A stretch of DNA of 16,801 bases from Candidatus Nanohaloarchaea archaeon (lineage in GTDB: Archaea; Nanohalarchaeota; Nanosalinia; Nanosalinales; Nanosalinaceae). The stretch spans positions 1 through 16,801 of the forward strand of contig JAWOFP010000005.1 in assembly GCA_046497485.1 (NCBI GenBank), in the 5' to 3' direction. Both the position numbers and the translations under genes were made by a program. Of this stretch, positions 1,383-16,801 are shown piece by piece (the first letter of the stretch is position 1; each line of letters opens with the position of its first letter). The notes under the pieces are model-generated. The model had not been told where the DNA came from and did not search any database. It saw nothing but the letters and a program-made list of their open reading frames with translations.

Positions 1383-1946
1383 ATGGGTAAAGGCGGGGCA
1401 GGAAATTATTCTTCAGAAGAACACTACGAACCAAATAATAGAGATACAGTTCCATATAATAGCGAATCTCCCTTCTTTCAAGCAGAAGGAACTGATGTAA
1501 CCGATCTTGCTTTTTTCATCGGACAGTTCGGCGAAGATGATGGAGAATTCAGCCTCAATGAGTATTGGACTGATCCAAAGACAGGCTTTAATTCAGAAAC
1601 TATAGGTCCTAAGACAGGAGAGTATATAGGAGGAGCAATTGGAGAGCGGCTTGATGACTTCCAGAACTCAGGTTACAATATTTCAGTATACGATTTTACT
1701 GGAGAAGATAGCTTGAAGGTAACTGCTGCCGTCAGCGAGTATTTTCCACGAAGTTTTAGACAGAGAGTTATAGCAAGTCCTCCAGAAATCAACCATGCAG
1801 ATGGAGGATTAACTGTGCGAGGAAATCTTGAAATATCAGGAGAAGATCTCTACGAAAGCGCTAAAAATTCTGATCTACAGGAAGCTAGATTATGGCCTCG
1901 AGCAGACTCTGCTCTTAGAAAAACTTTCCAAGTAGGTATGGATTAA
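1383..1946 (+). CDS. Hypothetical protein (187 aa, acidic)
   Basis: Long ORF with acidic composition like its neighbours and an AT-rich TATA-like stretch upstream (about 1349-1362). No family recognised. Confidence 0.75.
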   Translation: MGKGGAGNYSSEEHYEPNNRDTVPYNSESPFFQAEGTDVTDLAFFIGQFGEDDGEFSLNEYWTDPKTGFNSETIGPKTGEYIGGAIGERLDDFQNSGYNISVYDFTGEDSLKVTAAVSEYFPRSFRQRVIASPPEINHADGGLTVRGNLEISGEDLYESAKNSDLQEARLWPRADSALRKTFQVGMD

Positions 1947-1994: not shown

Positions 1995-2198
1995 ATGGGA
2001 AGAGTAAGGCAGACTTACATTAAAAGACTTGCAAGAGATCTTGTTGATTCAAACAAGGACTTTTCCGAGGACTTTGATGAGAATAAGGAAATTTTAAGCG
2101 AAACTCAGGAGTTTAATTCAAAGAGACTTCGTAACAGAGTAGCAGGTTACGTTACTACACTGAAAGGCCAAACAGAAGAACAGAAACAAGGCCTATAA
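1995..2198 (+). CDS. rps17e: 30S ribosomal protein S17e
   Basis: MGRVRQTYIKRLA...DFDENK...SKRLRNRVAGYVT signature, 67 aa. Confidence 0.96.
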   Translation: MGRVRQTYIKRLARDLVDSNKDFSEDFDENKEILSETQEFNSKRLRNRVAGYVTTLKGQTEEQKQGL

Positions 2199-4557
2199 TA
2201 TAGATCATTGTGGCTGTTAATCCTGGGACGCCTCTAGACTCTTGTTCTGAGCTTCTAACATACACAGGGAATTCTTCAACTGTTTCAGCACCAATCTGCT
2301 GATCGGTACTATTGAACCTCAATGCATCTTTTGCCGCACCAGCTCCTTCATCTGCCTCAACTTCAATTTGGAACCTCTTATTCTCCCCAGACTCTAATTG
2401 ATAAACTCCGCCACTGTAACTGGCAAAAGAAGCGTTAACATTGCCTTGAACTGTTGATACATCAGTAGTAATATTTTTAGGCTCAGGATGAGTATTCGCA
2501 ACTTCCAGCATCAAATTTGATTGTCCAGACTCTGTAACGATAAGAGAGCTATATTTGTATTCAATATTTTTACTTAACCTAAAGCTATCTGAAATAACTC
2601 TTCTAAAACTCCATGTCTCCTCATAAGTATCATAAGGATCTTCCAGTCTCACACCCCACTCAAAATCACCTAGTCCTACTTCCCAAATATATTCGTGGTT
2701 TGAGTTTAGATGTGCGTCTTCTACAGTTGCTATATCAGTGTTCTCTCTAGCATTAAAGAAAGTTAAATTAAATTCATCGCCTTCAGAGTCCGAAACCTCA
2801 ACCTCAAGATCTGCCTCTTCTCCTGTCACTATAGAACCATCCTGAGGAGATATTAACCGATCTATATCCGGCGCCTGATTAGGAATTTCATTACTACCAG
2901 TATCCCAGTTTGAGGTGCCTTTTTCATCCTCCACCGAAACATTGACATCTATATCATCATACACTTCAAAACCTGAAATAGAATTATTGACACTATCATA
3001 TCTACATTCTGCCCTTGTACTGGACTCAGCAGATAACTCGCCTTCAATCTTACCTGTCGAAGGATATCTATTGCCATCCTGGTCCTCAAAACTCATTGAA
3101 CATTCTCCAAAGTCTCCTGAACTAGTAAGCATATCCACATCAGCAACGACTTCAAAACCATGATGATCAGTCCAGTCATTAAAACCTATATTAGTTATCT
3201 GAGGAGGATAACCAAGATCAAGCTCATTATTACTCTCATCTGCCTCAAGTGTGTCTCCACGAGCTTCAGAAACTCCAACTTCAGAGTTTGAAACACTATT
3301 CCAGTAACCCTGATAATCAGCAATTATATTCAGATTTTCTACGTCATCTAATACTGAATTAGAAGCATCCACTGTAAAATCTATATTCTGGCTCTCACCT
3401 ACTGACAACGTAGGCAAGCTCTCCGAAACTCTATTACCGCCGTCATCAACTATTGAAACCTCTCTAGGCCTAGAACCAACTGTCCCTATATTCTCAACTT
3501 CAACTTCAACTTCTACATCGCCTAAATTTTCTCGGTGAGCATCAAAAGAAACCGCATCAAAATCGACTTCCTCAACATTATAACTATCTGAACCTGAGAA
3601 ACTGAATGTATTTGAACCTCCTTCATAATCCAAGAAAATCTCTGAATCACCGGTAACTAGTTCTTGATTACCAGGTACTGTAGGTCTCCACTCCAGATTG
3701 TGATTATAACTACCATCATCAATATCATTGTATTCTTTATCATATTCTGTTCCAGATTCAAACTTAGATATATCATCCGAGTATGCATCATCGTTCAATC
3801 TCATTCTTAAAGTTGCGTCAGTTTCAGTACTGACATCCTGTAGAATCGAATTATAGACACTATCAATAGTTCCTGTTTCGGCATACCAACAATTATCACC
3901 ATCATTATTCTCATCACTATTTTTAGTACATTGAGAAGCTCCCGATAATCTTTCAAACTCTCCGGCATCTGCGCCGCTACCATACATTATACCATGAACT
4001 TCAATCCCGTCATCTCTTGCATCATCGGCTGTATCCTCGGTATCAGTATCACTATCACCGTCTCCTAGAACTAACATTACTTCAATGTCGTTACCTCCAG
4101 AGTTTAGTTCATCATTAGCATCTTCAATAGCAGGAACTATGTCAGTACCTCCGCCATCGCTGATTTCATCAACTGCCTCTTTAGCATCATATTTGCTGCT
4201 AGTTAGTGACTGCTTCAAATCAGAACCTGTGTCAAAGGAAATAACCGCATTTTCATCTCCTTCAGCAGTTCTAGTATTATCGATATAATCTTTTGCAGCA
4301 TCCTGTGCATCACCTAGATCTTCACTCATACTTCCAGACTCATCAATTGCAAATACAGTATCAATCGGTTCATATGCTTCAATATCAAATTGGTAAGTGG
4401 ACTCCACAGGCCTTCCAAGGACATAATTAGTAGCTCCATCTGCCTGATCGGCCGACTCGCCTAGATTAGTGGCTACAGGATCATTAGCAGAAACTGAACT
4501 CATGAAAATCAAAAGAAATGAGATCAGTATCGCGTATTCAAAAATTCTAGACCTCAT
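2155..4557 (-). CDS. Large cell-surface glycoprotein: signal peptide, vWA (MIDAS) domain, CARDB/Ig-like domains, C-terminal membrane anchor
   Basis: Hydrophobic N-terminus ending VSA. MIDAS residues DESGS, GGTD and LGDG. CARDB-like VEVEVENIG...ADESNNE. Six NxS/T sequons in the C-terminal half. VPGL followed by a hydrophobic C-terminal helix. Confidence 0.88.
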   Translation of the reverse strand: MRSRIFEYAILISFLLIFMSSVSANDPVATNLGESADQADGATNYVLGRPVESTYQFDIEAYEPIDTVFAIDESGSMSEDLGDAQDAAKDYIDNTRTAEGDENAVISFDTGSDLKQSLTSSKYDAKEAVDEISDGGGTDIVPAIEDANDELNSGGNDIEVMLVLGDGDSDTDTEDTADDARDDGIEVHGIMYGSGADAGEFERLSGASQCTKNSDENNDGDNCWYAETGTIDSVYNSILQDVSTETDATLRMRLNDDAYSDDISKFESGTEYDKEYNDIDDGSYNHNLEWRPTVPGNQELVTGDSEIFLDYEGGSNTFSFSGSDSYNVEEVDFDAVSFDAHRENLGDVEVEVEVENIGTVGSRPREVSIVDDGGNRVSESLPTLSVGESQNIDFTVDASNSVLDDVENLNIIADYQGYWNSVSNSEVGVSEARGDTLEADESNNELDLGYPPQITNIGFNDWTDHHGFEVVADVDMLTSSGDFGECSMSFEDQDGNRYPSTGKIEGELSAESSTRAECRYDSVNNSISGFEVYDDIDVNVSVEDEKGTSNWDTGSNEIPNQAPDIDRLISPQDGSIVTGEEADLEVEVSDSEGDEFNLTFFNARENTDIATVEDAHLNSNHEYIWEVGLGDFEWGVRLEDPYDTYEETWSFRRVISDSFRLSKNIEYKYSSLIVTESGQSNLMLEVANTHPEPKNITTDVSTVQGNVNASFASYSGGVYQLESGENKRFQIEVEADEGAGAAKDALRFNSTDQQIGAETVEEFPVYVRSSEQESRGVPGLTATMIYIIGLVSVLLFGLSV

Positions 4558-6714: not shown

Positions 6715-7026
6715 TTATTCAGCGTTGAGAGGCCTTGCAGCTTCTTCCACAGTCATTTCTCTTTCTAGGTCTTCTGATAGAATTCCTGCCGATAGAGATC
6801 CTCTTGATTCTCTGGCTCCATATACTTCTGCACCTTCACTTCTCAAATTTGCTTCTGCCTTCGCCTGACCGTTCTCAAAGTCTACTCCATAGGCTTCACC
6901 ATCTATCTTTACAACAGCATCGTAGTCAGAGATATTTTCTGATGAAGGATTTTCTTCGATTCTATCCGCTTGATCTCTCAAGACCTGATAAGTGCTTCTG
7001 TTTGATTCGAGCTTGTCTATTGTCAT
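6715..7026 (-). CDS. Hypothetical protein (103 aa)
   Basis: ATG-started acidic ORF convergent on metG. No family recognised. Confidence 0.7.
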   Translation of the reverse strand: MTIDKLESNRSTYQVLRDQADRIEENPSSENISDYDAVVKIDGEAYGVDFENGQAKAEANLRSEGAEVYGARESRGSLSAGILSEDLEREMTVEEAARPLNAE

Positions 7027-7056
7027 AGTTATATTTACTTATTGGTAACAACAACA

Positions 7057-7551
7057 TTATAAACCTTTTGCTAAACTGGTATGTCCATCTTCAAATTGGC
7101 CTAGATATTTATCGATAATTTCTCTATCTCCCGTAGAAATAATTTTTTCCATTGTAAAGCCTTCTGTGTTAGAACCGCTCTGATCATAAGTTAAAGAAGG
7201 CTCAATTTCCAATTCAACATCTTTACCTGACAAAGAACTATGTGTATTTGATAGACATTCTCTAGCATAACCTCCTGCCAAAACCACCTTCCCATAATTC
7301 TCTGCAAGAAATTCGGCATCATCTTCATGCAACTTACCAGAACCTACTTCATTTAGTATATTATCGTAACTAGAGGCATCCCCATAAGGACGCTCACACT
7401 GCCTAATCCCATCAAAAGGAACAACATAGGTATCGCCTTCAAACTGTTCAACATATTCTACAAAATTCTCTCCAACAATACCATGATCAAATTTTTCATG
7501 AGGATGAGTGACGACCAACGCCTTATCAGCTACTACTCCATCAGAAGACAT
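7057..7551 (-). CDS. Hypothetical protein, possible divergent isochorismatase-like (cysteine hydrolase) fold
   Basis: N-terminal ALVVTHPHEKF and central VVLAGGYARECL match the layout of the family's ALLVID and lvlxGxxtxxCV motifs. Confidence 0.55.
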   Translation of the reverse strand: MSSDGVVADKALVVTHPHEKFDHGIVGENFVEYVEQFEGDTYVVPFDGIRQCERPYGDASSYDNILNEVGSGKLHEDDAEFLAENYGKVVLAGGYARECLSNTHSSLSGKDVELEIEPSLTYDQSGSNTEGFTMEKIISTGDREIIDKYLGQFEDGHTSLAKGL

Positions 7552-7560
7552 AATAAATTC

Positions 7561-7842
7561 TTAAAATGAGATTAATTCCTCTAAAGCCTCATCATCTGAA
7601 TCTGGAGAATAGTTATCTTCCAAATATTCTAAGGCCTTTTGTGGGTTTTCAGCTACATCTTTTTCCAGTACTTCTGTACTTCCTAGCGACTCATCATTTC
7701 CGGTAAGCAGGAATCTGTCTCCATACTCAACTAACCTTGCGTCAACTTTTTCCGGAATTGTGTTGTCTTCATATTTTACCGCAAATTTTTCATCGTCTAT
7801 CTCCACAATATCAAATCTGCCAAACTTGTAATCTTCGCCCAT
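7561..7842 (-). CDS. Hypothetical protein, probably the 3' part of a gene that starts at 7967 and is split by a frameshift
   Basis: Acidic ORF with first ATG at 7842. The frame stays open upstream to 7875, inside an A7 run. Confidence 0.65.
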   Translation of the reverse strand: MGEDYKFGRFDIVEIDDEKFAVKYEDNTIPEKVDARLVEYGDRFLLTGNDESLGSTEVLEKDVAENPQKALEYLEDNYSPDSDDEALEELISF

Positions 7843-7853
7843 CTCTATCACTC

Positions 7854-7967
7854 TCAAGTATAGATACTCATTTTTTTATGCTGGATTTTAGGCCTTCCGA
7901 CCTCTTCTCTGAGATCGTCAAGGGCTTTTTCTGCGACATCTTCGTAAGTTTCAGTCGTCAAGCTCAT
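7854..7967 (-). CDS. Short ORF absent from the ORF track (37 aa, MSLTTETYEDVAEKALDDLREEVGRPKIQHKKMSIYT), probable 5' part of the frameshifted gene
   Basis: ATG at 7967 lies 22 nt downstream of TATTTAAG. The peptide is acidic and helical. One extra A in the A7 run would fuse it to the next ORF. Confidence 0.6.
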   Translation of the reverse strand: MSLTTETYEDVAEKALDDLREEVGRPKIQHKKMSIYT

Positions 7968-8049: not shown

Positions 8050-8823
8050 ATGAAACTTCATTTTCTAGGAACTGGAGGAGGCCGGTTCGCGACAGGGAAG
8101 CAGTTAAGAGATACTGGAGGAATGATTCTGGAGTCGGACGAGACATCTATTTTCATTGATCCAGGGCCCGGAGCGCTAGTAAAAGCCCAAGATTATGAAA
8201 CTGAAAGTCTTGAAGGCCTGATCGTAACTCACTCTCACTTAGACCATTATAGTGATGCCGAATCGATAATTGAATTAATCTCGTTAATCCATGAGAACCC
8301 ATGTAAATTAATGGGTCCAGTGTCTGTGCTTGAAGGATATGGAGACATGGAGCAGTCAGTCTCAAACTACCACCGGAACCAGTGCACCAGAACAGTTAAT
8401 TTGACAGAAAAAGAGGAAACTGAACTCGGAGACCTTGAAATTGAGTCACAGGAAATGTTTCACAGTGAGCCCAAATGCAGAGGCCTGAAAATCTCAAATG
8501 GAAAAAAAGTATTCGGCTTCTGGACAGATTCAGCTTACAGCGACGAACTACTGGAATTTTATGAGGACTGTGATACACTGGTTATCAACTGTAACAGGCC
8601 TAGAGAAGGAAACATTAGAGGCCACCTATCTCTAAGCGAAGTGCCGAAAATATTGGAAGATTCAGGTATTTCTACCTTGATAATCACTCATTTCAGCGAT
8701 AAGTTCCTAGAAGCAAATCTAGAAGAAGAAAAGGCCTGGCTCGATGACCAAGTAAATCAGAAAGTCGTCTTTGCAGAAGATGGAATGACTTATCCTGGAG
8801 ATAGGAAGCTAAGTAGTTTCTAG
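8050..8823 (+). CDS. MBL-fold metallo-hydrolase (PhnP/RNase Z-like superfamily)
   Basis: MKLHFLGTGGGRF start, IDPGPG, THSHLDH (HxHxDH), downstream H, WTD, GHL and THF ligand motifs. ATG 8050 is preferred over GTG 8002 because the family begins at this strand. Confidence 0.9.
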   Translation: MKLHFLGTGGGRFATGKQLRDTGGMILESDETSIFIDPGPGALVKAQDYETESLEGLIVTHSHLDHYSDAESIIELISLIHENPCKLMGPVSVLEGYGDMEQSVSNYHRNQCTRTVNLTEKEETELGDLEIESQEMFHSEPKCRGLKISNGKKVFGFWTDSAYSDELLEFYEDCDTLVINCNRPREGNIRGHLSLSEVPKILEDSGISTLIITHFSDKFLEANLEEEKAWLDDQVNQKVVFAEDGMTYPGDRKLSSF

Positions 8824-10076
8824 GTAGCAGCCGACTGTTGGTTTTGTTGCATCCTGCCAACCATTATTCTTTTAGCCTGATTCAGAGCCTCATCTCTCTC
8901 AATATCTTCCTCTTCCATTAACTGAGTAACGGCTTGTTCAGGTACTTGTTCATCAGCTAGCTGTTGAGCCAACTGTTCCATATTTGATTCAATATCCTCT
9001 CCTTCACTTTGTTGCTGACCTGAATCAATTCCGTCAATAGTTGGATCATAACTCTCCGCATGGACTGTTTCCCCGTCCAGAATTCCTATTTCGATAGCTG
9101 CACCATTGTTTGTGTTTGCCACAGTTGTATCATAGATTTCATCAACCATTGGCTCTCCAGTGTGCCCTCCGCCAGTTAGAGCAATATCCTGTTGATATTC
9201 CTCTACTACTTTATCCACTACCGTCGATCCAAACCGATTTACTGCCGACGACATCACCCCATGATGTGCTAGGTAGATATTGTTTTCTGCATTTTCAATT
9301 CTGGAACCTAGGCCTTCCATCATTTCCATCGCAGCTTCATAGTCAATATGCTCCTGAGTGCGATCAAAGCCCTTAGGTAAATCGTCTAGCGAAAGCTCAT
9401 CAGGATTCGGAGATTTTTCGACCGAGAATAAGCTCCTGAAAACCCCTCCAACTATCGGAATACTGGACAAAAACCCGTTATAAGGTCTTTTTACAGTTAT
9501 TTCAGAAGCAACCTCCTCACCGTCATAATTTACATCTTCTAGGCCTGGTTCTTCTTCAAGGAACTCTCTTTCTGTCTCCTCTTCAATGTGATGGCTGCCG
9601 CCAACCACAGTCAAGTTCTCTAGCTCTAAAATATCGCTCTCGATATTAACTAAGTTATCATATTTCTCTTCAGTAAGGAACTTGTAAGCATTTCCATCAA
9701 ATTCTCTAAATCTTTCATGCTCCCCATCTAAAATTTCTTCAACTTGGCCTACAAATTCTTCATCTAAAACTTCGCCGTCAGGAGCATGAGCTCCGGCTAT
9801 CGGCGCGTGATTTCCGGGTAGAACGGCTACATCTACATCCAAGTCACCGCCTAATCTATCTAAAGTCTGATAAGTCTGGTCTAATTGCTCAATATAGGCC
9901 TCCGGGTCTAAATCGCTTTTCTTTGATGCATCACCAGCATACTGGATTAAATCGAGATCCCCTTCATCATACCTCTCAACAATCTTATCATAATCTAGGC
10001 CTTTATCCTCAGTATCACTTACCTGAAGGATATTTGAGTCAAGATTACCGAATTCTTGGTTTTCCGTAGAACTCAT
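8820..10076 (-). CDS. Calcineurin-like metallophosphoesterase-fold protein with degenerate metal motifs
   Basis: Motifs in the correct order: ILQVSDTE, YAGD, LPGNH, LAHHG, GGGHTG. Large central insertion and Q/E-rich tail. Confidence 0.75.
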   Translation of the reverse strand: MSSTENQEFGNLDSNILQVSDTEDKGLDYDKIVERYDEGDLDLIQYAGDASKKSDLDPEAYIEQLDQTYQTLDRLGGDLDVDVAVLPGNHAPIAGAHAPDGEVLDEEFVGQVEEILDGEHERFREFDGNAYKFLTEEKYDNLVNIESDILELENLTVVGGSHHIEEETEREFLEEEPGLEDVNYDGEEVASEITVKRPYNGFLSSIPIVGGVFRSLFSVEKSPNPDELSLDDLPKGFDRTQEHIDYEAAMEMMEGLGSRIENAENNIYLAHHGVMSSAVNRFGSTVVDKVVEEYQQDIALTGGGHTGEPMVDEIYDTTVANTNNGAAIEIGILDGETVHAESYDPTIDGIDSGQQQSEGEDIESNMEQLAQQLADEQVPEQAVTQLMEEEDIERDEALNQAKRIMVGRMQQNQQSAAT

Positions 10077-12784: not shown

Positions 12785-14026
12785 ATGAGCAATGACGAAA
12801 AGCATGAAACGATGTCTAAGTACCGGCTGAAGAAGCTGATTAAGAAGCTGGAAGACATCAGAGGAAGGAACACAGAACTGGTTTCGCTTTATATTCCTGC
12901 AGGTTACGACATGTCCAAGATCTCAGAATTTGTGACGAGTGAGGCCTCGGAAGCTGAAAATATCAAGTCCAAGCATACCAGGAAAAATGTCCAGGCCGCA
13001 CTCGACAAGATAGGGAGAAAAGTAAAGGAGGAACAGCAGACGCCTGAAAACGGCGTGGCTTTCTTCGCAGGTAATGTTTCAGAACGTGAGGGAAGGCCCG
13101 ACATCCAGGTCTGGGAAGTAATCCCTCCACGCCCAATTGAATCACGACATTATAGATGTGACAAAGAATTTGTTTTAGAGCCTTTGAAGCAGATGGTAGT
13201 GGACGACAAAGTCTACGGATTAATAGTAGCAGACAAAAATGATGCCGCTATAGGATTTTTACAGGGTAATTCGATCAAGACAGAGCATGTAATGAGTTCT
13301 AATGTCCCAGGGAAAACAAAAGCTGGGGGACAGAGTGCGCAAAGGTTTCAGCGTTTCAGGAAAGAGATGTATCAGACTTGGATGAACGAAATAGCTGATA
13401 ACGCTAAGAAAAGCTTCCTGCCTAAGAAGAGACAGGATAAGTTATTGGGGATTATAATTGGAGGCCCAGGATTCACCAAAGACAAATTAATAGAGGATGA
13501 CTACATTCATCAGGAGCTTCAAGAGGATATAGTTACAACGGAATCAACTAATTTCTCAGGAGAAGAAGGCCTGGAAGAACTAGTATCGAAGGCTGAAGAC
13601 TCAATCCAGGATTCCCAGGTTGTGAAGGAGAAGAACCTAGTGACAGAGTTCTTCGAGAACTTGGAAAAAGAAAACGGTAAGTCAGAGTACGGGCCTGAAA
13701 GGGTTAAAGAGGCCTTAGATATTGGAGCAGTTGACACTATTCTGATTTCGGAATCGACCGAGCTTTATTATGCCGAGTTTGAATGCCCTGAAGACCACGA
13801 AGATCACATGTTTGAGGCAAAGGCAGAGATACCGGAAGATAAGGAGTGCCATGAATGTAACCAGGACATGGAATTAACTGAGTTGGCTGATATAGTTGAT
13901 GCTTTCGGAGAAAAAGCAGAGGAAATGAGCTCAGACCTAGAAATAATCGGTAACGAACACGAAGAAGGTCGCAGACTGGAAAATATGGGTGGCGTAGCAG
14001 CTATTCTTAGATATAGAATAAGATAA
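12785..14026 (+). CDS. prf1: Peptide chain release factor aRF1
   Basis: TELVSLYIP, NIKS, YRCDKEF (YxCxxxF), GGQSAQRF, and C-terminal GGVAAILRY. Confidence 0.98.
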   Translation: MSNDEKHETMSKYRLKKLIKKLEDIRGRNTELVSLYIPAGYDMSKISEFVTSEASEAENIKSKHTRKNVQAALDKIGRKVKEEQQTPENGVAFFAGNVSEREGRPDIQVWEVIPPRPIESRHYRCDKEFVLEPLKQMVVDDKVYGLIVADKNDAAIGFLQGNSIKTEHVMSSNVPGKTKAGGQSAQRFQRFRKEMYQTWMNEIADNAKKSFLPKKRQDKLLGIIIGGPGFTKDKLIEDDYIHQELQEDIVTTESTNFSGEEGLEELVSKAEDSIQDSQVVKEKNLVTEFFENLEKENGKSEYGPERVKEALDIGAVDTILISESTELYYAEFECPEDHEDHMFEAKAEIPEDKECHECNQDMELTELADIVDAFGEKAEEMSSDLEIIGNEHEEGRRLENMGGVAAILRYRIR

Positions 14027-14045
14027 TCAGAGAGCCCAAGAAATT

Positions 14046-14051
14046 TTTAAG
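14046..14051 (+). promoter_or_regulatory. Putative TATA box of the MazG-like gene
   Basis: TTTAAG within AAATTTTTAAG, ending 26 nt before the ATG at 14078. Confidence 0.45.
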
Positions 14052-14077
14052 TGAAGTGATTCCAACCTTTTCTTATC

Positions 14078-14359
14078 ATGAAAGATCTAGATAAGAGTGC
14101 TGAAGACATAATTGAGATTTATTCGAGAGAATTAAACGATAAGGAACAGTTCCATCATGCTCTAGAGGAACTTTCAAAACATCCCTCAAAAGTAGCCAAA
14201 CTCTTAGAAAGAGATCAGGAAGAGCATTTGAAAGAAGAGATAGTCGATATACTGCTTCTGTCTCACGTACTGAAGTTGAAAAAAGATATCAGCACAGAGG
14301 ATATTGATTCGGCAGCCCAGCACTTCATCCAGAAGATAGATGAGATCTATGAAGATTAA
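14078..14359 (+). CDS. Small all-alpha protein, MazG-like NTP pyrophosphatase fold
   Basis: 93 aa helical protein with ALEEL and HLKEEIVDILL, resembling the MazG EExxE and EExxD motifs. The first motif is degenerate. Confidence 0.6.
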   Translation: MKDLDKSAEDIIEIYSRELNDKEQFHHALEELSKHPSKVAKLLERDQEEHLKEEIVDILLLSHVLKLKKDISTEDIDSAAQHFIQKIDEIYED

Positions 14360-14427
14360 ACTCTAGTTAACTGAGACTGGATAAATATACCTCAATTCAA
14401 AGATTTAACCCTTAATTTCATTGAGCG

Positions 14428-14515
14428 AGCAAGGATCTGGAAATTATAGGGAACGAAGATGAAGAATGACATAAGAGGAAAGAACACAGAAATTTTACGT
14501 TAGAGGATCCGATAA
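14428..14515 (+). pseudogene. Relic 1: mosaic of diverged aRF1 fragments
   Basis: 14434-14466 encodes DLEIIGNEDEE (aRF1 384-394 DLEIIGNEHEE, 26/33 nt). 14468-14491 encodes DIRGKNTE (aRF1 24-31 DIRGRNTE, 22/24 nt). 14492-14515 encodes ILR*RIR* (aRF1 407-413 ILRYRIR*, 16/24 nt). Confidence 0.8.
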
Positions 14516-14520
14516 AAAAT

Positions 14521-14527
14521 TTTAAAC
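14521..14527 (+). promoter_or_regulatory. Putative TATA box of the scramblase-like pseudogene
   Basis: TTTAAAC ends 22 nt before the ATG at 14550. Confidence 0.5.
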
Positions 14528-14549
14528 GAATTTCTCAAATTAGGAATTA

Positions 14550-15153
14550 ATGGTTAATTCTGAGTTAAAATAAAGAATTGAGGAATCTCTTCAAGAAGGA
14601 TATACTCCAGAGGAGATTGTGAAGGCCTTAAGGGAAGATGGTTACAGTGATGATCTAATCTTTTCTGCAGTAAAGAAAGCTGAAAAAGATCTCGAATCCG
14701 GAAACCGTAGATCTAGTAGGTCTAACAACTCAGCAGATTCATCACAACAGGAAATGAGTGGAAACCAGAGCAGCAGAAGGCAGAATAATAGAAATCAGGA
14801 TACTAGGCCTCAGAATAACGAGACCGAAAAGAGAAATAATAATCAGAGGCATTCTAACAATAGCAAGGAGATTGTTCCTGGGGCGGATCTATCCGATAAC
14901 CAGTACACTCTGAAGCAGAGGCGGTATAGACATTTTGAGAATTTTAGGAGGAAAGATACCCTTTGTTGGTCTCTTGGTGAGCTTCATACCTCGCAAGTAT
15001 GATGTGAAAAAAGGAAGAGATGAACAGATAGGCACGATAGAAGGAAAAATTGGGATACACAATATATACAATATAGAAATCAACTCAGGGGAGATCCCAC
15101 AGGAAACTATGATTGCTTCAGCTGTGGCTATTGATGCCTTAGAAAACAATTAG
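14550..15153 (+). pseudogene. Disrupted gene: small helical N-domain, N/Q/R/S-rich linker and LURP-one/scramblase-like domain
   Basis: ATG 14550 is in frame with ORF 14619 but has TAA at codon 8 (14571-14573). The frame switches near 14914-14920 into ORF 14935-15153. DLSDNQYTLKQ and IPRKYDV...IGTIEG...IASAVAIDALENN resemble, from memory, the two ends of haloarchaeal LURP-one-related proteins, with the middle missing. Confidence 0.75.
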
Positions 15154-15173
15154 ATAAGATTTCGTTAATATTA

Positions 15174-15217
15174 TTTGGAGAAGTATTAGCACATCTCAAG
15201 AATGTAGAATAAGATAA
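15174..15217 (+). pseudogene. Relic 2: more decayed copy of the aRF1 3' end
   Basis: TAGAATAAGATAA at 15205-15217 is identical to aRF1 14014-14026. The region reads FGEVLAHLK[+2 nt]CRIR* against aRF1 MGGVAAILRYRIR*. Confidence 0.5.
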
Positions 15218-15247
15218 AATAGAATAAAAATAAGAGTTGTCAAATAT

Positions 15248-15540
15248 TCAGACTAGTTTATTTGGTTCATAAACCTGTACCTGCTTATTCTTCATACCAA
15301 CACCCTCTTTATAATCAACTAAACTCTGAAGAGCATCTGCATATTCATTATCTGGCGTATCCATCGAGACTGTAGCGTAACTGCCTGATCCTTCATGGAT
15401 TTTAAGTCTAGCAACTTCATTTTTCTTTCCATCTAAATATTTCAAAGTATTTCCAGTTCTTACTTGAGTATCCGCAAGCGGCATAAGTGCGTCTTCAATG
15501 TCTGAAATTCCAAATTCATTATCTAAATCATTCTCCGGAT
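15248..15540 (-). pseudogene. Hypothetical gene that appears to have lost its original start codon
   Basis: The frame of ORF 15248-15484 stays open and coding-like upstream (PENDLDNEFGISDIEDALM) with no start codon. AT-CCG at 15540 lies 20 nt from TTATAAAG (15561-15568). Confidence 0.5.
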
Positions 15541-15612
15541 ATGAAAATGAGACTACAAAACTTTATAAGCAGAAGAACCTGTCAAAGCCAGGATTAGAGA
15601 AATGTACCACAA

Positions 15613-15619
15613 TTTAAAG
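15613..15619 (+). promoter_or_regulatory. Putative TATA box of sufB
   Basis: TTTAAAG ends 22 nt before the ATG at 15642. Confidence 0.55.
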
Positions 15620-15641
15620 ATTCATTCTCGAATGACTAAAT

Positions 15642-16801
15642 ATGAGCGAGAACCAGAATATTGAGAAAAACCAAGAGAGATTTGAACACAAAATCGATAC
15701 TAAAGAAGGCTTCAATACCGGGAAAGGACTGACAGAAGAGACAGTCAGGAAGATTTCCGAGGACAAGGATGAGCCTGAATGGATGCTGAAAAGAAGATTA
15801 GCGGCTTTCAGACATTTCAAGAAAAGGCCTATGCCAGGATGGGGTCCAGATCTTTCAGAACTAGACTTTGAGGAAATCAACCACTACATCAGGCCTGATA
15901 CTGAACAAGCTGATGACTGGGATGATGTTCCTGAAGATATCGAAGAGACTTTCGATAAGTTAGGAATTCCTGAAGCAGAGAAAGAGGCCTTATCTGGTGT
16001 CGGCGCACAGCTAGAATCAACTGTCGTCTACCAGAACATGAAAGATGAATGGGAAGAGAAAGGAGTAATCTTCTGCGATATGGATAAAGCAGTACAAGAA
16101 CACGGAGATCTAGTGAAAGAATACTTCATGAAGAAATGTGTGCCTCCTCAGGATAACAAGTTTGCAGCTCTACACGGAGCAGTATGGAGTGGAGGTTCAT
16201 TTGTTTATGTACCCGAAGGAGTGGAAGTCGAAATACCGGTTCAGGCCTACTTCAGAATGAATCAGAAAGGCATGGGGCAGTTCGAACACACATTAATCGT
16301 TGCGGAAGAGAATTCCAAGATACACTACATCGAAGGATGTTCTGCACCACAGTATACTCAATCAAATCTTCACGCAGGATGTGTCGAAGTTTTCGTTAAA
16401 GAAAACGCACATGTCCAGTACTCCACAGTACAGAATTGGAGTAAAAATACTTACAACCTGAATACGAAGAGAGCCAAGGTCAAATCTGATGGAGTTATGG
16501 AATGGGTATCAGGATCGATGGGATCAAAAGTTACAATGCTTTACCCATCCTCGCATTTAAACGGTGAAGGCGCAAGAGCCAACCACATAACAATCGGATA
16601 TGCAGGAGACGGACAGAACATCGATACTGGTGCGAAAGTAATTCACAATGCTCCTAATACTAAATCAACGATTGAGTCCAAATCAATTTCTCAAGGAGAG
16701 GGAAGAACCAATTATAGAGGCCTTGTAAGAGTTCCAAAAGGCAGTCACGGAAGCAAAGTCTCGATTGAATGCGACGCACTGATGTTCTCAGATGAAGCCA
16801 C
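15642..16801 (+). CDS. sufB: Fe-S cluster assembly protein SufB (truncated by the window end, absent from the ORF track)
   Basis: Manual translation gives GLTEETVRKISEDKDEPEWML, WDDVPEDIEETFDKLGIPEAE, KFAALHGAVWSGGSFVYVP, GQFEHTLI, YIEGCSAP, LHAGCVE, STVQNWS and DTGAK. Confidence 0.96.
   Translation, partial: MSENQNIEKNQERFEHKIDTKEGFNTGKGLTEETVRKISEDKDEPEWMLKRRLAAFRHFKKRPMPGWGPDLSELDFEEINHYIRPDTEQADDWDDVPEDIEETFDKLGIPEAEKEALSGVGAQLESTVVYQNMKDEWEEKGVIFCDMDKAVQEHGDLVKEYFMKKCVPPQDNKFAALHGAVWSGGSFVYVPEGVEVEIPVQAYFRMNQKGMGQFEHTLIVAEENSKIHYIEGCSAPQYTQSNLHAGCVEVFVKENAHVQYSTVQNWSKNTYNLNTKRAKVKSDGVMEWVSGSMGSKVTMLYPSSHLNGEGARANHITIGYAGDGQNIDTGAKVIHNAPNTKSTIESKSISQGEGRTNYRGLVRVPKGSHGSKVSIECDALMFSDEA

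Follow-up and report, generated by a model that had tools for sequence, protein, structure and literature searches.

The 16,801-nucleotide (nt) stretch of DNA analysed here, referred to as the window, is the whole of contig C21 of a Candidatus Nanohaloarchaea archaeon genome (G000; 967,558 bases, 66 contigs, 97% complete). Between the gene for archaeal peptide chain release factor 1 (aRF1) and sufB, the window carries a row of small cargo genes separated by decayed copies of the aRF1 end. Throughout, G denotes genomes, L aRF1 loci, X runs of population contigs and C contigs; aa stands for amino acids and ORF for open reading frame. The features of the interval and of its two flanking genes are as follows.

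12785..14026, plus strand: aRF1, intact, 413 aa, the upstream anchor (Pfam eRF1_1, eRF1_2 and eRF1_3 above cut-off)
14078..14359, plus strand: MazG-like gene, intact, 93 aa, cargo of unit 1
14376..14429, plus strand: decayed sufB promoter and first codons (matrix from relatives' sufB promoters)
14430..14466, plus strand: relic 1 block A, aRF1 codons about 382-394 (family matrix, rank 2)
14468..14491, plus strand: relic 1 middle, like the aRF1 5′ region (blastn, 22 of 24 nt)
14492..14515, plus strand: relic 1 block B, aRF1 codons 407-413 and stop, ILR*RIR* (family matrix, rank 2)
14550..15153, plus strand: scramblase/LURP-one-like pseudogene, cargo of unit 2 (alignment to the intact L076 gene)
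15174..15217, plus strand: relic 2, decayed aRF1 codons about 402-413 and stop (p 0.002-0.03 against some tails, and position)
15248..15535, minus strand: ORF3, small, acidic, family unassigned, cargo of unit 3 (open frame; homologue in L080)
15593..15641, plus strand: functional sufB promoter region (alignment to G002 and G003)
15642..16801, plus strand: sufB (Fe-S cluster assembly), the downstream anchor, running off the contig (Pfam SUFBD_core and SufBD_N)

The order aRF1, MazG-like gene, relic 1, scramblase-like gene, relic 2, reverse ORF and sufB had been proposed in an earlier sequence-only reading, and it is borne out by the sequence and by Pfam. That reading also held the window to be free of integrases, and the Phage_integrase (PF00589) matches of G000 indeed lie on contigs C59, C28 and C17, with none on C21. 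Its proposal that each cargo gene has its own TATA box stands in part, as TATA-like hexamers lie about 30 nt upstream of each (14044, 14520 and, on the minus strand, 15568), but these are consensus matches only. The third gene had been described as start-less: its counterpart of the L080 start is disrupted, although 78 codons can be read from an ATG at 15484. Overlooked in that reading were the sufB promoter/start relic at 14376-14429 and the aRF1 5′ piece at 14468-14491. aRF1 itself is present as one full copy in G000. At the other end of the interval lies 15593-15641. In G002 and G003 aRF1 directly adjoins sufB, and the final aRF1 codons and stop of these two genomes align with the first 9 nt of this region, which matched tail-plus-downstream queries at p 0.003-0.005, a signal that is mostly promoter-driven. 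A candidate third relic at 15530-15552, overlapping the ORF3 start region, was not significant and was rejected.

Relic 1 had been read as the end of a former functional aRF1 allele, and the counts behind that reading were reproduced. In block A, DLEIIGNEDEE matches 10 of 11 residues of aRF1 384-394, with seven nt differences (six at third positions; five codons synonymous), and block B shows eight differences (five synonymous codons and one nonsense codon). Scored with family matrices, which included G000's own tail, each block ranks second among about 1.93 million genome positions, behind aRF1 only, and no further aRF1-tail copy stands out anywhere in G000 on this measure. When the blocks are pooled, the 15 nt differences change 2 of 18 residues, which was matched by 0 of 200,000 neutral simulations, although this result is overstated because the blocks were picked for protein likeness. 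When the 853 G000 genes no shorter than 120 aa were compared for tail copies in downstream non-coding DNA, aRF1 scored highest, at 44, and alone stood clearly above the null, for which 828 random pairings gave at most 31; two other G000 tail copies, at C4:1791-2544 and C34:10612-11887, score 35. A search by nhmmer with a 105-nt tail model returned relic 1 at E 0.41-1.7 only, and the signal sits in the ungapped blocks. In alignment, relic 1 coincides with the genuine end of the L076 aRF1, and block B runs on into an intergenic region and a gene that are alignable with those behind that end. The synonymous divergence and the native aRF1-neighbour gene that follows indicate that relic 1 was once the end of a functional allele; because the divergence is synonymous, it was not copied from the resident one. 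Between the two blocks, 14468-14491 matches 12854-12877 (aRF1 codons 24-31) at 22 of 24 nt and in frame with block B (blastn E 4e-5); this is the genome's best match, with a runner-up at 20 of 24, and its boundaries were set post hoc. Codon order across relic 1 runs 382-394, 24-31, 407-413.

The spacer that separates relic 1 from the MazG-like gene consists of a sufB promoter and start in a decayed state, so that the first junction reads cargo, sufB head, old aRF1 tail. With a matrix built from eight relatives' sufB promoters (G000 excluded), position 14376 ranks second of 1,931,024, scoring 25.6 against 35.4 at the real promoter and 19.7 at the next best position. The score of this copy against the G000 or L080 promoter was reached by 0 of 3000 AT-rich windows, and against other promoters by 1-249 of 3000. 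Both the TATA-like box and the ATG of the copy are mutated, and no function is predicted for the scars. The sufB-head scar passes into relic 1 where the sufB start resembles aRF1 codons 381-387 (MSEDQEI vs MSSDLEI); this short homology is seen at one junction, and a later deletion could have produced the same join. Since the incoming DNA carried a sufB promoter and start, it probably came from this chromosomal locus in a relative and not from a mobile element.

The second junction is less sharply defined. Relic 2 is significant with the tails of G000, G001 and G004 (p 0.005-0.033) and not with those of G002, G003 and G023, and it falls outside the top 10 window sites of a gapped family profile. 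In alignment, it falls where the real aRF1 end of L080 lies. The claim of a second displaced tail is upheld by position and by the gene that follows, ORF3, a native aRF1 neighbour in L080; its statistics are moderate and significant against some tails only. Comparison with L076 shows many small indels in the diverged relic 2, set between flanks that are 92-96% identical. Several variants of it occur among population contigs. L080 carries a 20-nt near-repeat of its own last codons in the first 24 nt after the aRF1 stop (p 0.015), and a similar short repeat follows relic 2 at 15218-15235 of the window.

The three cargo genes are unrelated to one another and could be assigned to families to differing degrees. 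For the MazG-like protein, Pfam MazG and MazG-like are matched below cut-off (E 0.006-0.012; 17.4 bits vs 27 and 16.3 vs 22), and its Atlas neighbours are MazG/PRA-PH proteins at 0.90-0.92; Atlas features and predicted-structure neighbours thus point to a MazG-like fold and to nothing beyond it for the product of 14078-14359, a putative alpha-helical NTP pyrophosphohydrolase-like protein. The gene occurs in 2 of 50 family genomes, G000 included. In L073 it lies directly behind aRF1, and 31 of the 50 differences between the two copies are at third positions. The intact scramblase-like proteins of L076 and L073 gave no Pfam match at E 0.001, and likeness to Atlas LOR clusters at 0.85-0.86 is a lead only, so the LURP-one/scramblase (PF04525) label is putative. 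Of the 32 family genomes outside the genus, 18 have a homologue no more than 1.6 kb downstream of aRF1. Compared with the intact 293-aa L076 gene, the window copy has a stop at 14571-14573 and a 293-nt deletion, which lies between 6-nt repeats (about 14917-14922), and population contigs hold intact versions continuing at 14922. Its first 24 nt are nearer to L073 (20 matches vs 17) and the next 96 nearer to L076 (92 vs 70); the final 240 nt are identical to L076 at 230 positions (96%). No Pfam match was obtained for ORF3; the gene immediately following aRF1 in L080 is an intact homologue of 96 aa, and a 33% identical one lies beside sufB in G025. In that last genome, which belongs to another genus, the sufB protein (L083; G025:C11) adjoins the ORF3 homologue and is 88% identical to the window's, compared with 73-76% in other g2-labelled genomes. 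This identity and the adjoining homologue suggest that the sufB side was transferred too.

To place the window among its relatives, aRF1 was traced in 40 of them, including 4 genomes of the same genus and 32 other family genomes. In 4 of 4 same-genus genomes sufB follows aRF1 within 41-478 nt, and in the 32 other family genomes it was absent from the ORFs up to 6 kb behind aRF1. A metagenome scan with the genus-type motif returned nine loci, four of which repeat G001, G003 or G004 (140 nt compared); the five new ones were assigned to the genus by the motif and 76-84% aRF1 identity only. Across close loci, aRF1 DNA identity is 72-84%, and the aRF1-sufB slot is found in 9 states in 10 distinct close loci.

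G002 and G003: slot empty
G001: 97-nt spacer
G004 and L079: unrelated reverse ORFs
L080: ORF3, then sufB
L081: truncated scramblase, then sufB
L073: MazG and scramblase, then sufB
L076: scramblase and ORF3 (the contig ends before sufB)
Window: MazG, scramblase and ORF3

From these states it follows that every cargo gene of the window has a counterpart immediately after an intact aRF1 in a relative: the MazG-like gene in L073, the scramblase-like gene in L076 and L081, and ORF3 in L080. Simpler intermediate arrays are found in L073, L076, L080 and L081 and among the contig joints described below; an aRF1-MazG-sufB allele alone was not seen. Variation among close loci extends to the interval upstream of valS, where the window, L080 and L081 carry a reverse-oriented gene of 377-418 aa that L073 and G001 lack. 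A direct view of an exchange is given by L073 and L079, whose aRF1 genes differ at 46 scattered codons in 1-375 and at none in 376-401, and then at codon 402 and at 7 of the last 8 codons, with a breakpoint at about codons 403-406. Cargo differs between the two loci, and their sufB starts are 81% identical. The near-identical aRF1 bodies, set against divergent ends, cargo and sufB starts, indicate that tail and slot were swapped together.

Four runs of contigs were compared with the window stretch, joints being called at 85% likeness and some having short sides. No population contig covers the whole stretch. One X1 contig is identical over 13937-14259 (X1 may be the source sample). An X9 contig from another study (record 23) is 91% identical to the window over 14224-14769, where it shows 48 differences and 3 gap letters, and so crosses the MazG-like gene, both scars of the first junction and the scramblase-like gene; the second junction is contained in L076. 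Joints in other contigs connect 14026 to 15561, 14026 to 15593, 15149 to 15593, 15153 to 15554, and 13786 or 13824 to 14572. These joints reflect alternative slot states.

The aRF1-sufB interval is a variable slot, and we consider it probable, with moderate confidence, that three alleles have been stacked in it through homology at one end and a short-homology join at the other, the donor being the same locus of a close relative. It is likely that no dedicated enzyme stands behind the stacking. In the usual case there would be two homologous crossovers, one in aRF1 and one in sufB, which would replace the slot without a scar; such an outcome fits the scarcity of relics, which passed the scan at 1 of 41 loci. 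Occasionally the second join would be illegitimate, the donor sufB start entering the recipient aRF1 tail. The resident aRF1 would then keep its function with a new tail, the old tail and cargo would be shifted downstream, and the redundant scar would erode by microhomology-mediated deletions. A short-repeat deletion has occurred in this locus, where the scramblase deletion ends at a 6-nt repeat, and RadA is present in G000. Microhomology-mediated end joining is established in Haloferax volcanii (PMC12281630). The three units of the window may represent two such events and an ordinary crossover within the scramblase gene, and an ordinary crossover of two two-unit arrays, L073-type and L076-type, could also yield a three-unit array. 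Two elements of the sequence-only reading change. It had foreign aRF1 tails and cargo entering the aRF1 3′ end, which agrees with the tail-plus-cargo swap in L073/L079, but the incoming DNA also carried a sufB head. It had also taken the array to be chronological, and this was not borne out: the scramblase breakage is recent, the gene being intact in L076 with 96% identity over the last 240 nt, and a strict age order is further doubted because scramblase segments differ in their nearest relative, although that evidence is weak.

Several observations weigh against stacking by such recombination. Cargo is variable among relatives, as had been anticipated, but the tail relics expected to bound it were not general: in a relic scan up to 6 kb behind aRF1 at 41 loci, only the window passed, so that most changes of the slot leave no relic that can be detected. 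Traces elsewhere are weak (the L080 near-repeat already mentioned, G004 at p 0.09, and a 10-nt positional trace in L073). A second sufB-head scar, sought before relic 2 at 15149-15173, had a best score matched by 168 of 3000 null windows. No sampled allele is an exact source of relic 1, since block A is nearest to L073 and L079 (4 differences in 33 nt), block B to L081 and the downstream gene to L076. A single event at the 3′ end does not account for the aRF1 5′ piece in the middle of relic 1. Sliding-window comparison of the window aRF1, limited by near-saturated third positions, revealed no clear shift in affinity at the 3′ end. Lastly, ComEC and DprA were not found in the 97%-complete G000, and classical transformation is therefore unsupported.

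The 5′ piece is better accounted for by tandem duplication of the whole locus, in which a single crossover (with a circle or unequal) would add a full aRF1, slot and sufB start, and the spare aRF1 would be cut down by short-repeat deletions. We regard this as a possible but unlikely origin. An aRF1 5′ piece lying in frame with the final codons suggests a former full-length spare aRF1, short-repeat deletion is demonstrated in the scramblase gene, and L073 resembles the same junction after one more deletion. The codon order across relic 1, however, would require three aRF1 copies and several deletions, and no longer intermediate exists among the examined loci or contigs. Duplication followed by erosion and the stacking of slot alleles end in nearly the same product. 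Replacement of a gene's tail is also the classic result of integration into its 3′ end, and an element or virus with an attP in the aRF1 3′ end might insert repeatedly and later keep one cargo gene. The L073/L079 breakpoint within the last 12 codons would suit such an element, and G000 encodes two tyrosine recombinases above cut-off and one below. This is nevertheless improbable: the scar contains a chromosomal sufB promoter, the cargo consists of ordinary aRF1 neighbours (the scramblase homologue among them), C21, which ends inside sufB, has no integrase, and no other aRF1-tail copy is prominent in G000. No viral contig matched either of two aRF1-tail patterns, in a set where nanohaloarchaeal viruses may be poorly sampled, and none encoded the MazG-like gene or ORF3, as far as close relatives go. 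Crossover positions are available for few events, about codons 403-406 in L073/L079 and about codon 382 at the start of relic 1.

Retention of the scars for a function, for instance a sufB promoter copy that drives the downstream gene or tail copies that regulate termination, appears very improbable. The sufB-head copy is still readily recognisable, and in a related strain the junction is equally long. Against this, mutations have struck both its TATA-like box and its ATG in the window, L073 keeps both genes though nearly the whole scar is missing, and between the window and L076 relic 2 has changed faster than the sequence on either side of it. That the array is a misassembly of co-occurring strains, or a chance likeness in AT-rich spacers, is in our view barely credible. 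The assembly comprises 66 contigs, polymorphism is present at the locus, the stretch is unspanned by any one contig and the significance of relic 2 is moderate; against this, the stops, indels and decay of the relics are not expected from a chimera of intact alleles, the independent X9 contig crosses the first junction and L076 the second, three separate blocks each rank second in the genome, and aRF1 has the top tail relic among the 853 genes. Misassembly or chance, which the sequence-only reading had named as grounds for abandoning its claim, is thus largely refuted.

In integrons and 3′-end islands, the most recent unit is the one closest to a fixed point, and the 3′ end of the target is replaced and its old end displaced. 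Stacked slot alleles resemble these systems in all three respects; however, the locus is without an adjacent integrase, attC-like repeat or mobile-element genes, and sequence from the core gene on the downstream side forms part of its scar. Replacement-type flexible genomic islands exchange alternative contents between conserved flanks, as does this slot, but the slot is tiny (0-1.6 kb) and its alleles are also added in tandem. Homology-facilitated illegitimate recombination is described for Streptococcus, Acinetobacter and Pseudomonas (PMC2884548, PMC5361080); the events proposed here would share with it one homologous anchor and one illegitimate join with short homology, and differ from those in naturally competent bacteria in that ComEC and DprA were not found and the event is read from scars. 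For Vibrio cholerae, the sequential displacement seen in type VI secretion system (T6SS) effector-immunity arrays is attributed to the same process, the arrays are likened to Rhs/contact-dependent inhibition (CDI) orphan strings and to integrons, and scar-free replacement is given as commoner than stacking (PMC5361080). On that account, both loci have a conserved upstream anchor, a new module beside the anchor, older modules and 3′ remnants moved downstream, and no integrase. Unlike the Vibrio arrays, the anchor here is an essential housekeeping gene in an archaeal host, the cargo consists of unrelated small genes without toxin-immunity selection for retention, and the scar records both flanks, sufB head and aRF1 tail. 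No published description of the aRF1-sufB locus was found in the literature on nanohaloarchaeal recombination, islands and hypervariable regions, in a search confined largely to open-access papers.

Homing endonucleases raise recombination nearby, and an insertion of about 500 aa was found directly after the aRF1 GGQ in 5 of 36 family relatives, beginning with C and ending with HN before S. This apparent intein lies in the G004 aRF1 (L075:2349-5081) and is also present in G006, G009, G013 and G017; the one insertion that was scanned has intein, LAGLIDADG and helix-turn-helix domains. Three genomes of the same order (G045, G051 and G056) show the same split of aRF1 matches. The aRF1 3′ end might accordingly be an integrase-free capture hotspot of the genus, in which breaks made by the homing endonuclease of the GGQ intein are repaired from a relative and drag in the tail and its neighbour, sometimes stacked. 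We think this rather unlikely, and the window has no intein, which argues against an intein as the cause of its own events. No report of an intein at the GGQ of aRF1 or another release factor was found, again in a search largely of open-access papers. Elsewhere, sufB frames of G036, G006, G072 and G063 are 829-890 aa long, compared with about 470, with a split near residue 120 in G063, and these genes possibly contain a sufB intein. An extra 51-aa match to the aRF1 N-terminus lies at G016:C1:154063-154215, about 2.7 kb upstream of the full gene. Small acidic ORFs also sit between core genes in the remainder of the window, at 6715-7857 (minus strand), 1383-1946 (plus strand) and 8820-10076 (minus strand), the first two without Pfam matches. 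At 2155-4557 (minus strand), an 800-aa acidic protein is encoded that is probably secreted and has a C-terminal membrane segment; its DESGS motif is presumably von Willebrand factor A (vWA)-like.

Altogether, the scars are evidence, at the level of sequence, for how a streamlined, host-dependent DPANN archaeon without detected competence genes exchanges and adds genes between close species, and because they record two flanks the steps stay readable. The range of sequential-displacement arrays is thereby widened beyond the toxin loci of bacteria to an essential translation gene of an archaeon. The GGQ-adjacent intein offers a testable trigger, and the small size and countable states of the locus make the balance of replacement and addition measurable in salt-lake populations.

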